Origin: an uncultured Muribaculaceae bacterium
Lineage (GTDB): Bacteria; Bacillota_I; Bacilli_A; RF39; UBA660
Assembly: GCA_964605575.1 (NCBI GenBank)
Contig: CAZSDG010000002.1
Span: forward strand, 1 to 44,360
Length of the DNA stretch: 44,360 nucleotides
Reading direction: 5' to 3'
In this document: positions 38,024-40,970 of the stretch, in pieces
Numbering within the stretch: the stretch's first letter is position 1
How the letters are laid out: each line of letters begins with the position of its first letter
The notes under the pieces: generated by a model
The model's input: the letters and a program-made list of their open reading frames with translations, nothing else
What the model was told of the DNA's origin: nothing
The model's database searches: none
Translations under genes and position numbers: made by a program

Positions 38024-38725
38024 ATGGTTGAATTTATATTAATTGAAGATGATTTATTGATTCATAATACAGTTGAAAAAATCATTGTCAATTTATTATT
38101 TTCAAAAAGCATCGAATTTAATATTCAAACCTTTATTAATTATAATTCTGAACTTCAAAAAGTAATTGAAAGTAGCAGTATGAAAAAAATATATATTATT
38201 GATATACAATTAGCTGGTAAAATTTCCGGAATTTCAATTGCCGAAAAAATTAGAGAAAAAGACTGGGATAGTGAAATAATATTTATTACAAATCATTCTA
38301 AAATGTTTGAAAAAGTTTTTAATAATATATTAAATGTTTTTTCATTCATCGAAAAATTTCACAATTTTGAAGAAAGACTAACAGCCGATATTAAAAGAAT
38401 AATTTCCCATAAAATTGATAATGAAACTTTTAATTTTTCAAAAGGAAAAATAGATTTAAGAATACGTTTTAAAGAAATTATATATATTTTTCGTGAAACA
38501 AGCACCAGAAAAATTCATATAATTACTACAAATAATGAATTTATTATTTCGATGAATATTAAAGACATAATGTTAAAACTTGACGGTAGATTTGCTCAAG
38601 TTCACCGCGCTTGTATTGTTAACAAAGATCGTATAGTAAAATATGATTGGAGAAATAAATATTTTGAAACAGATAATAAAAAAATAGTATACTTGCTGTC
38701 ATCAAAATACAAAAAATCAATATGA
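38024..38725 (+). CDS. agrA: LytTR-family response regulator (AgrA-like)
   Basis: Receiver domain (ILIEDD, YIIDIQL phospho-Asp context, IIFITNHS, FIEK) and a C-terminal LytTR domain (IIYIFRE..., FAQVHRACIVNKDRI). Similar in outline to S. aureus AgrA (YFLDIQL, IIFVTSHS). Confidence 0.85.
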   Translation: MVEFILIEDDLLIHNTVEKIIVNLLFSKSIEFNIQTFINYNSELQKVIESSSMKKIYIIDIQLAGKISGISIAEKIREKDWDSEIIFITNHSKMFEKVFNNILNVFSFIEKFHNFEERLTADIKRIISHKIDNETFNFSKGKIDLRIRFKEIIYIFRETSTRKIHIITTNNEFIISMNIKDIMLKLDGRFAQVHRACIVNKDRIVKYDWRNKYFETDNKKIVYLLSSKYKKSI

Positions 38726-39987
38726 ACTTTAATAGTTTTATCCTATTTTTTACAGTTATTTCATTATCAAGCCTTGTAAATATTTTTTGTATTAAAAAAA
38801 TATCTTCAAAACGAGTAGAATTCAACATAATTAATACTGTAATATTTATTGTAGCAACAATAATAGTTATGTTTAATAATTTACAAAACAATATTCTTTT
38901 ACTTTTACCAATTAATTTTGTAGTAATGCTAATATTAAATCGGTTTATATTCAAAATAGATAAAAATATTATATTTAAATATTTAACTGTATATTTTATT
39001 ATTGGGATAACAATCGATATTATGTTGTCAATATTATTAATAATATTTGGTTTTAACAATATTATAGAATTTAATAATGATAATCTATTTAAGTCCCTTT
39101 ACACCTTAATTCATTCGATATTTGTAATACTATTATTTTATAATAAAAAGACGTATTCAATTATCGATAGCATTGTTGTAAGCATTGAAAAAATTGAAAA
39201 TCAATTTGTTATAATTACTATTTTTGTTTTTATATCTAGTTTACTGATGAAATTTAATGTATCAGAAAAAATTATGATTAAAAAGTATCTATCAATAATA
39301 CTTATATTTACATTTTTATTAATGCTGATTATTAAATTATATAAAAGTATCTATAAAAATAGTTTACTAATTAATAATTTAATAAAGGCGGAAAAAATAA
39401 ATAATGAATATCGCTTAATGAAACACAATATTTTAAACGACTTAATTCATATTAAAACAAGTAAGACAGATGAAATTGTTCAAGAAACAATAAATAAATA
39501 CCTGGAAGAAAAAAACAATAATATAAATCTTGGGATTATTAAAGATGGAATTAACGGAATTATTTACTACAAAATGCCGGAAATTATTGATAATAAAATA
39601 AGTATATATATTAATAATGAACTAGAAGAAAATATAGAAAACCTTATTCCTGCAAGACAATATAAATCTTTTTGTGATATATTTTCTATTCTAATTGATA
39701 ATGCACAAGATGCAGCTTGTTGTAGTGAAAAAAAGAATATATACATAAATATATATAAAAATAATGAAGTATTAAATTTAATGGTTGCAAACTCATTTAA
39801 TAATAAAATTGATTTAGATCAGTTAGAAAATATTAACTATTCTACTAAACTCATTCCCAGTGGATTAGGTCTATTTTATATTAACAAAATAAATGATAAT
39901 AAGTTTAAAATAAATCGAATAATAAAAGAAGATGTATTTATTACTAAGGTATTGTGGAAAATAAATAATGACATTAAAAAAATATAG
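38722..39987 (+). CDS. agrC: AgrC-like (HPK10) membrane sensor histidine kinase
   Basis: About 200-aa polytopic N-terminus, H-box RLMKHNILNDL, N-box ILIDNAQDAA, G-box PSGLGLFYINK. ATGA overlap with the regulator gene. Confidence 0.8.
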   Translation: MNFNSFILFFTVISLSSLVNIFCIKKISSKRVEFNIINTVIFIVATIIVMFNNLQNNILLLLPINFVVMLILNRFIFKIDKNIIFKYLTVYFIIGITIDIMLSILLIIFGFNNIIEFNNDNLFKSLYTLIHSIFVILLFYNKKTYSIIDSIVVSIEKIENQFVIITIFVFISSLLMKFNVSEKIMIKKYLSIILIFTFLLMLIIKLYKSIYKNSLLINNLIKAEKINNEYRLMKHNILNDLIHIKTSKTDEIVQETINKYLEEKNNNINLGIIKDGINGIIYYKMPEIIDNKISIYINNELEENIENLIPARQYKSFCDIFSILIDNAQDAACCSEKKNIYINIYKNNEVLNLMVANSFNNKIDLDQLENINYSTKLIPSGLGLFYINKINDNKFKINRIIKEDVFITKVLWKINNDIKKI

Positions 39988-40020
39988 ACAGTTTGCTTTC
40001 TAACTGTCTACATTTATTTT
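39985..40020. terminator. Bidirectional terminator between convergent agrC and agrD
   Basis: TAGACAGTT (39985..39993), 8-nt loop, AACTGTCTA (40002..40010). A T-rich tract follows on the plus strand. Confidence 0.6.
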
Positions 40021-40047
40021 ATTACTTCAATTAATCTGTTTTTTTCT

Positions 40048-40164
40048 TTATAACAGAGACTTTGGACATTCTAGTTCATCTAAAATAAACCAAAAACAAG
40101 CTGTTCCATTGTTTACTGCAACTGTACTTAGAACAATTAATGTTGAAGCTAATAATTTTTTCAT
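40048..40164 (-). CDS. agrD: AgrD-like autoinducing peptide precursor (38 aa)
   Basis: Not in the ORF track (under 60 aa). Hand translation: MKKLLASTLIVLSTVAVNNGTACFWFILDELECPKSLL. RBS AAAGGAGGAAAAC lies inside the agrB 3' end, and there is an ATGA overlap with the agrB stop. The Cys+4 ring followed by an acidic DELExPK tail parallels S. aureus AgrD (CDFIM-DEVEVPKEL). Confidence 0.85.
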   Translation of the reverse strand: MKKLLASTLIVLSTVAVNNGTACFWFILDELECPKSLL

Positions 40165-40697
40165 GTTTTCCTCCTTTCTTTAATATCAAAATTGAGATAA
40201 TTACGATAAGGTTGTCCAAATATTTTATAAGTAAATGGAGAAATCAAGAACAATTGAAAAGTAGCTGCCCAGAGCATGCTTGTTGAAACATTTTTTGGTA
40301 CAAAATTCAATAAAATGATGTATATAAATAATATAAACAATGTTAAAAATTTACTAAAAATTCTTTTTTTCTTATTAAGCATTGATTTTTTCACGGTGTC
40401 GGCAGGTGCCCAAATAGTATAAAAAGGTAGATAAATTATCAATAATATTAAAAATATATTTGTTGGTAAATCTATTTTAGTTATTAGAAAAGGAATAATA
40501 AGAAATGCTATTAGAGAAAAAAACCAACAATCCCTACTTTTAGACAAATGTATTCCAAAAGAAAAAGTCCGCAATGGGAAATAGCACAACATGAAAATAA
40601 TTGTATTATTAAAGTTATTTAGAAAAAAACTCAACAATAATATTACTAACAGTTTTGTCGTAGTCATAAGTATACCTTTTAACCCATAAATAAACAT
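40161..40697 (-). CDS. agrB: AgrB-like AgrD-processing membrane endopeptidase
   Basis: 178 aa, polytopic. The catalytic His/Cys pair has the S. aureus spacing (FGIHLSKSRDCWF; H50, C57). agrD lies immediately downstream. The start could also be M11 (40667). Confidence 0.8.
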   Translation of the reverse strand: MFIYGLKGILMTTTKLLVILLLSFFLNNFNNTIIFMLCYFPLRTFSFGIHLSKSRDCWFFSLIAFLIIPFLITKIDLPTNIFLILLIIYLPFYTIWAPADTVKKSMLNKKKRIFSKFLTLFILFIYIILLNFVPKNVSTSMLWAATFQLFLISPFTYKIFGQPYRNYLNFDIKERRKT

Positions 40698-40709
40698 TTC
40701 TTTTTCTTC

Positions 40710-40739
40710 TGTTTACAAAGAAATGTTTTTGTTTACAAA
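40710..40739. repeat. Direct repeat TGTTTACAAA x2, 20-bp period, upstream of agrB (candidate LytTR operator)
   Basis: Copies at 40710..40719 and 40730..40739, 13 bp upstream of the first agrB ATG. Confidence 0.35.
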
Positions 40740-40970
40740 ATTATTTATTTTATTAATAATTACTTCCAATACTCTCACCAGTCAAAGCATAGAGTAAAAA
40801 AAGAAGATTATTTAGTTTTAAGATTATAATGGTAATAACTTTGTTTAAAGTAAATAAATTTATATATTTAATATTATTTAGTCATTTTCAGACAAAAAAA
40901 CGACTATAATAGACGTAATTTTAAAAAAATAAATATAATTAAGGAAAATTTAACTAAGATAAGAGGTGAT

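Follow-up and report, generated by a model that had tools for sequence, protein, structure and literature searches.

Among the described agr systems, those of Ruminiclostridium cellulolyticum, Clostridium acetobutylicum and Staphylococcus aureus resemble the locus analysed here most closely. The signal Rc-AIP1 of R. cellulolyticum, derived from AgrD1, was detected by HRMS/MS as a six-residue macrocycle CWFWSY without N-terminal extension; being unstable, its thiolactone converts into a homodetic cyclopeptide (PMC8251862). C. acetobutylicum has agrBD in one operon and the kinase and regulator genes agrCA in another, six-membered rings were predicted for clostridial AgrDs with a C-x5-Y-E-P spacing (PMC10301443, Fig. 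S1), and a synthetic peptide, R6T0, was used as the signal of C. acetobutylicum (PMC10301443). In S. aureus, AgrB, with the residues R70, G75, H77 and C84, cleaves AgrD between M32 and D33, a cut that requires both D33 and E34 (PMC10196373). The leader protease of S. aureus is MroQ of the CPBP family and not a signal peptidase, and natural agr-defective alleles are well known in this species (PMC10482373). Of the forms of the autoinducing peptide (AIP) established by experiment in staphylococci, Listeria and C. perfringens, the five-residue ring is the most frequent (PMC7300355; PMC10482373), and the AIP of Staphylococcus intermedius is a lactone closed by a Ser nucleophile (cited in PMC10482373).

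The locus studied here lies in a 44,360-nucleotide stretch of DNA (the window) from a metagenome-assembled genome of 0.92 Mb in 72 contigs, 91 % complete and with 27 % G+C. The following features were assigned:

38024 to 38725, plus strand: AgrA-like response regulator with receiver and LytTR domains (PF04397, 46.7 bits; PF00072, 32.3 bits)
38722 to 39987, plus strand: divergent AgrC-type (HPK10) histidine kinase, a membrane protein of 421 aa, recognised by a profile of 20 family kinases
39985 to 40010, scored on both strands: bidirectional terminator hairpin containing G+C, common to the converging kinase and agrD transcripts
40048 to 40164, minus strand: agrD, AgrD-family precursor of 38 aa (leader 1-22, core 23-28, follower 29-38)
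40051 to 40080, minus strand: predicted follower peptide DELECPKSLL (D29-E30-L31-E32-C33-P34-K35-S36-L37-L38; codon of L31 at 40072-40074)
40081 to 40098, minus strand: predicted six-residue macrocycle core, codons C23-F-W-F-I-L28, from the family register, the S. aureus cleavage site and the CWFWSY precedent
40161 to 40697, minus strand: agrB remnant ORF of 178 aa counted from the first ATG past the stop (Pfam AgrB, PF04647)
40170 to 40177, minus strand: ribosome-binding site AAAGGAGG inside the end of agrB
40713 to 40781, minus strand: 5' portion of agrB cut off from the rest (LVRVLEVIINKINNFVNKNISL), its last codon a premature TAA at 40713-40715
40887 to 40916, minus strand: candidate pair of LytTR boxes, ACGTCTATT and TTGTCTGAA, spaced at a period of 21 nt ahead of the ancestral start of agrB

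As in R. cellulolyticum, the precursor gene stands beside an AgrB (PF04647), and the core starts with Cys and is rich in aromatic residues (CWFWSY against CFWFIL, the latter predicted only). The hosts differ, R. cellulolyticum belonging to the Clostridia and the present organism to Bacilli with reduced genomes. The layout in two operons, with agrBD apart from the kinase and regulator genes, is that of C. acetobutylicum, and so is the Cys-x5-(x)EP spacing, from which a six-membered ring is predicted (R6T0). In contrast to C. acetobutylicum, the operons converge, the regulator precedes the kinase, no LanM-like gene follows downstream, and the follower begins with D-E-P/L instead of Y-E-P. With S. 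aureus the locus shares the combination of an AgrC-type HPK10 kinase and a LytTR regulator; the staphylococcal system differs in its single operon, its RNAIII effector and a five-residue ring with an exocyclic tail of 2-4 residues.

Direct reading of the minus strand from 40164 to 40048 gave the protein MKKLLASTLIVLSTVAVNNGTACFWFILDELECPKSLL. The ORF, the ribosome-binding site AAAGGAGG with a 5-nt spacer to the agrD ATG, and the overlap of this ATG (40164-40162) with the agrB stop TGA (40163-40161) as ATGA were exactly as described in the original prediction, which had recognised an AgrD from the letters alone. The NCBIfam model TIGR04223 (quorum_AgrD) matched the ORF with 20.2 bits against a curated cutoff of 19 (E 5e-4), and a six-frame scan of the whole 0.92-Mb genome returned this ORF as its sole match. 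The genome-wide scans also found a single AgrB and a single AgrD, adjacent to each other. The small ORF follows agrB directly on the same strand and is followed by the terminator, an arrangement repeated in about 47 related genomes, where a homologous small ORF, collinear with this one and preceded by a good ribosome-binding site, lies 3' of agrB. Because of the family HMM match, the position after agrB and the adjoining AgrC-type kinase and LytTR regulator, ORF 40048 to 40164 is identified as a genuine agr-type cyclic quorum-sensing peptide gene. It is an ordinary member of its family and already catalogued: the description as unannotated was true of the initial ORF track only, since the identical 38-aa protein is present in the public protein collection, with NCBI among the sources and assigned to a contig as long as the window (44,360 nt). 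A phmmer search with AgrD against 1.84 billion representatives returned the query itself as the only match. Translation of TGA as Trp was considered and rejected; Trp is encoded by TGG in agrD, and all long ORFs, the largest of which has 1074 aa, stay open when read with table 11. Logan gene calls for two loci (L023, L108) do read TGA as Trp (...KERRKTWKNY, MLW...), which has placed artefactual extensions in the public protein collection, apparently through a code-4 model triggered by the low G+C content.

The kinase of the window, searched alone, had no Pfam or PDB match. A profile of 20 orthologous kinases matched S. aureus AgrC with E 5e-27 (6E52) and 3e-23 (4BXI), and 17 of these 20 family kinases match PF14501. 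The window protein retains H235 of the H-box, D326-N327 of the N-box and G381-x-G383-L384 of the G-box. It is only 20-26 % identical to the family orthologues, is encoded in a region of 20 % G+C and is too divergent to be recognised on its own. For the regulator the best NCBIfam match was quorum_RR_AgrA (1.2e-12), below the equivalog cutoff. This layout, in which the plus-strand genes for the regulator and then the kinase converge with the minus-strand pair agrB-agrD, is conserved in relatives. Judged by sequence, all four agr functions are present at the locus.

The agrB gene of this strain carries a premature stop codon that had gone unmentioned in the original prediction. The whole-genome scan matched the AgrB profile from position 2 to 184 over 40245-40754 with one in-frame TAA, the translation running ...LVRVLEVIINKINNFVNKNISL, stop, TEEKEMFIYGLKG... 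The stop lies about 26 codons into agrB and removes about 30 N-terminal residues (profile positions 2-22), and the remnant matches PF04647 with 88.8 bits over profile positions 23-184 only. In conspecific contigs from SRR8925819 and ERR3345674 the codon at this position is TCA (Ser). The same two contigs encode Pro (CCA) at residue 31 of AgrD, as is the rule in the family, against Leu (CTA) in the window. On balance, these two changes make it more likely than not that this strain has lost its signal production or makes far less.

A fully functional agr system, in which AgrB is re-initiated at ATG 40697 or 40667 and the P31L exchange is neutral, is possible, if clearly the less likely case. The remnant AgrB aligns R43, G48, H50 and C57 at the spacing of R70, G75, H77 and C84 of S. 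aureus and keeps P98 together with all predicted membrane helices, the kinase and the regulator are intact, and agrD has its own strong ribosome-binding site; at the equivalent of Pro31, S. aureus has Val, so that P31L may be harmless. Against this reading, the N-terminal 20-30 residues of AgrB are kept, without an internal stop, in all 29 other relatives above the family cutoff. A good ribosome-binding site is absent before ATG 40697, and the NCBI-listed AgrB of 168 aa, which starts at 40667 (the methionine of MTTTK), would also lose the nearly invariant Tyr-Gly motif (Y4-G5). Moreover, start-codon loss and a deletion occur at the locus in the same species, and four congeners are without it, a pattern that fits decay.

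For the signal itself, the register of the precursor was examined in an alignment of 48 family precursors including this AgrD, anchored on the follower motif [D/E]-E-P-x-x-P. At position -6 from [DE]-E-P the family has Cys (29 precursors), Thr (16), Ser (2) or Ala (1), hence a nucleophile in 47 of 48. In the window precursor C23 occupies position -6 from D29-E30 with five residues, FWFIL, in between, and P34 is present. The original prediction had counted exactly four residues between the Cys and the tail and was one residue out. The four-residue spacing of the five-residue-ring AIPs of the Staphylococcus, Listeria and C. perfringens type is not found in this AgrD; it has the Cys-x5 then x-E-P spacing of the six-residue-ring type, which is also the family norm, together with that type's small pre-Cys residues. 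A cut after L28 places D, E, P, K and L at +1, +2, +6, +7 and +9, the same positions as in the follower of S. aureus AgrD-I, the precursor of AIP-I, quoted in the original prediction as DEVEVPKEL; the follower has 14 residues in S. aureus and 10 here. The likeness of the two tails noted before thus holds residue by residue for a cut after L28, and the register proposed at the time, with a cut after I27, is off by one throughout. Since the family register at -6 and the cleavage site of S. aureus both point there, the predicted macrocycle is more likely CFWFIL than the CFWFI proposed originally.

It is unlikely that AgrB cuts after I27 and releases a five-residue thiolactone C-F-W-F-I with a follower starting at L28. 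Besides the prevalence of five-residue rings among established AIPs, this reading can draw on two family precursors (L007, L041) with a Cys four residues ahead of D-E-P, so five-residue rings may occur in the clade; the same two precursors, however, also carry Thr at -6. The I27 register would put Leu at +1 and Asp at +2 and move Pro, Lys and Leu by one residue out of step with the S. aureus follower, whose scissile bond lies directly ahead of the essential D33-E34 (PMC10196373), and the nucleophile is at -6 rather than at -5 in 47 of 48 family members. The computed cyclic [M+H]+ is 810.4007 for CFWFIL and 697.3167 for CFWFI. Peptide synthesis should target the six-residue macrocycle ([M+H]+ 810.401) and not the five-residue ring.

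The residues ahead of the core concern the N-terminus of a CFWFIL signal. Of the 29 Cys-type precursors, 27 have Ala or Gly at -1, and 27 have one of Ser, Thr, Gly and Ala at -3; the window precursor reads G20-T21-A22 before C23. Since the Cys-type family members carry small residues at both positions, the leader is probably removed directly ahead of C23, which would leave a ring without tail. The lack of an N-terminal extension in Rc-AIP1 fits these small residues. The genome encodes one PF02517 (CPBP) protein, on contig 30.

A second Cys in the tail, C33, had been regarded as unusual. Cys just ahead of the follower Pro occurs in 23 of 48 family precursors, that of a congener included, and by this distribution C33 is clade-typical and would leave with the follower. 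The congener precursor (G005), MKKHLASFLIMLSVVAVNNGTASFWWIFDEPECPKSLL, shares the tail and carries Ser at position 23, which makes position 23, not 33, the nucleophile; C33 as the ring-forming residue was rejected, as position 23 toggles between Cys and Ser within the genus and the -6 register is conserved. The toggle, Cys in this species and Ser in the congener, resembles the staphylococcal switch from Cys to Ser seen in S. intermedius, a comparison that concerns G005 and not the AgrD of the window. Across the family, 18 of 48 AgrDs carry Thr (16) or Ser (2) at the nucleophile position (L006, L018, L029, L042-L050, L057, L058, L065, L076, L091, L107). A Cys ahead of the follower Pro is present in 17 of these 18 and in 6 of the 29 Cys-type precursors (Fisher p 6e-7, phylogeny not corrected for). 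To our knowledge, no Thr-closed AIP has been characterised.

The genome is a 72-contig metagenome-assembled draft, yet an assembly or sequencing artefact concealing an intact agrB is highly improbable, because the same T at 40714 occurs in independently assembled Logan contigs of two other runs, 100 % and 99.98 % identical across the locus, and is linked to 16 other allele-specific differences. These contigs, 100 % identical over 1,800 nt in SRR8925716 and with a single mismatch at another site in the 5,440 nt of SRR8925808, show that the allele of the window is not an assembly slip. The AgrD allele of the window is also carried by SRR8925789. Conspecific contigs are 99.3-99.8 % identical, and some present other lesions. 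In ERR3345674 (L024, a single Logan contig) the agrD start ATG has become ATA (window 40162) and the agrB stop TGA has become TAA. In the 62-kb contig ENA ERZ4240871 and in SRR8925811, 2,235 bp (window 38687-40921) are deleted between 10-nt direct repeats (TAAAAAAATA); the deletion takes out the kinase gene, agrD, agrB and the agrB promoter, and it joins the LytTR regulator and the cold-shock gene csp in one frame, yielding a 301-aa ORF. A fully intact agr allele was present in only one of the conspecific sightings.

Compared with this intact allele (L023), 17 of 19 differences of the window fall inside the 2.2-kb agr module (38752-40940) and 2 in 3.2 kb of flanking sequence (binomial P 2.6e-5). 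Ten of the differences in the module are non-synonymous or nonsense against four synonymous ones, and in the kinase four of five changes are non-synonymous, located in the membrane sensor half. The clustering is suggestive either of selection that is relaxed or diversifying or of recombination in this segment. That a natural allelic series of agr signal-production defects circulates in one host cohort is conceivable, and we put it forward tentatively.

Relatives identified by SecA include genomes named uncultured Bacilli or Tenericutes bacterium, Mycoplasma sp. CAG:776, Clostridium sp. CAG:710 and CAG:302, Candidatus Scybalousia and Candidatus Faecimonas, sampled from rabbit, goat, chicken, mouse and human gut metagenomes; the CAG-named relatives presumably belong to the GTDB order RF39. 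The family genomes have sizes of 0.7-1.3 Mb. AgrB was found in 30 of 61 relatives searched, and 33 of 80 loci flanking secA have it in the same slot, upstream of csp-hpf-secA. Since both the slot and the arrangement of regulator-kinase and agrB-agrD are conserved, the agr locus is by its synteny an old one that the family has passed on vertically. Of the five other species in the genus, four (G001-G004, L113-L116) have no regulator, kinase, agrBD or csp; rpmE-rpiB-DUF1146 runs straight into hpf-secA, and this clean junction indicates that the absence is real and not a matter of incomplete assembly. In four more distant species (L030, L035, L097, L106) a LytTR regulator lies directly upstream of csp without kinase or agrBD, the same end state as in the deletion allele within the species. 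An ancestral agr locus appears to have decayed repeatedly, within and between species.

With regard to regulation, the ACGTCTATT / TTGTCTGAA pair lies upstream of the ancestral agrB start, and similar TGTCTAAAA pairs at 21 nt occur in four relatives (L029, L060, L047, L065). The shuffle expectation for GTCT(A/G) pairs at a 21-nt period was 0.035 in 50 regions, against the four relatives observed. As a lead only, the pair is a better candidate for the LytTR boxes than the direct repeat TGTTTACAAA, two copies of which (40710/40730; 40707-40746, 20-nt period) were rejected for lying inside the ancestral agrB coding sequence; it is the nonsense mutation at 40714 itself that makes both copies identical. 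The gene csp was considered as an agr-specific output. It is divergent from agrB in 25 of 25 loci with agrB, and the proposal is weakened by 19 loci that have csp without agrB, some of which have the slot occupied by sporulation genes. Among the relatives nearest by SecA that are without agr (L027, 430-2932), genes resembling spoIID, an M23 peptidase and spoIIID fill this slot, so genes of the sporulation type have been retained in some of these genomes of about 1 Mb.

Taken together, we regard it as likely that the ORF is agrD and belongs to an agr locus, complete but damaged in this strain, of an uncultured gut member of the Bacilli with a genome of about 1 Mb, encoding a six-residue signal whose production is impaired. 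By analogy with characterised agr systems, the hydrophobic leader (residues 1-22) would dock the precursor at the membrane, where AgrB, a Cys/His peptidase, would cut between L28 and D29 and hold the peptide as an acyl-enzyme. Attack of the C23 thiol on the acyl-enzyme bond would yield the six-residue thiolactone C-F-W-F-I-L, and removal of the leader, probably right at C23, would set free a tail-less ring, a type that in Clostridia rearranges to an all-amide cyclopeptide. The ring would be sensed by the AgrC-type kinase, and the LytTR regulator would activate the target promoters. AgrD is probably translated in the allele of the window because of its own strong ribosome-binding site; with the nonsense codon in agrB and the P31L exchange, processing of the peptide would probably be poor or absent. 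The strain would then be a likely signal non-producer that has kept sensor and regulator.

CFWFIL adds one more predicted pherotype to a family already recognised by automatic annotation. Peptide signalling of the agr type is widespread and syntenic in these uncultured gut Bacilli with genomes of about 1 Mb and yet has been lost repeatedly, which makes them a tractable case for the decay of quorum sensing during genome reduction. If an allelic series of production defects does circulate in one host cohort, it would give a direct view of social 'cheating', or of peptide quorum sensing being lost adaptively, in an uncultured gut commensal with a reduced genome and not in a pathogen.
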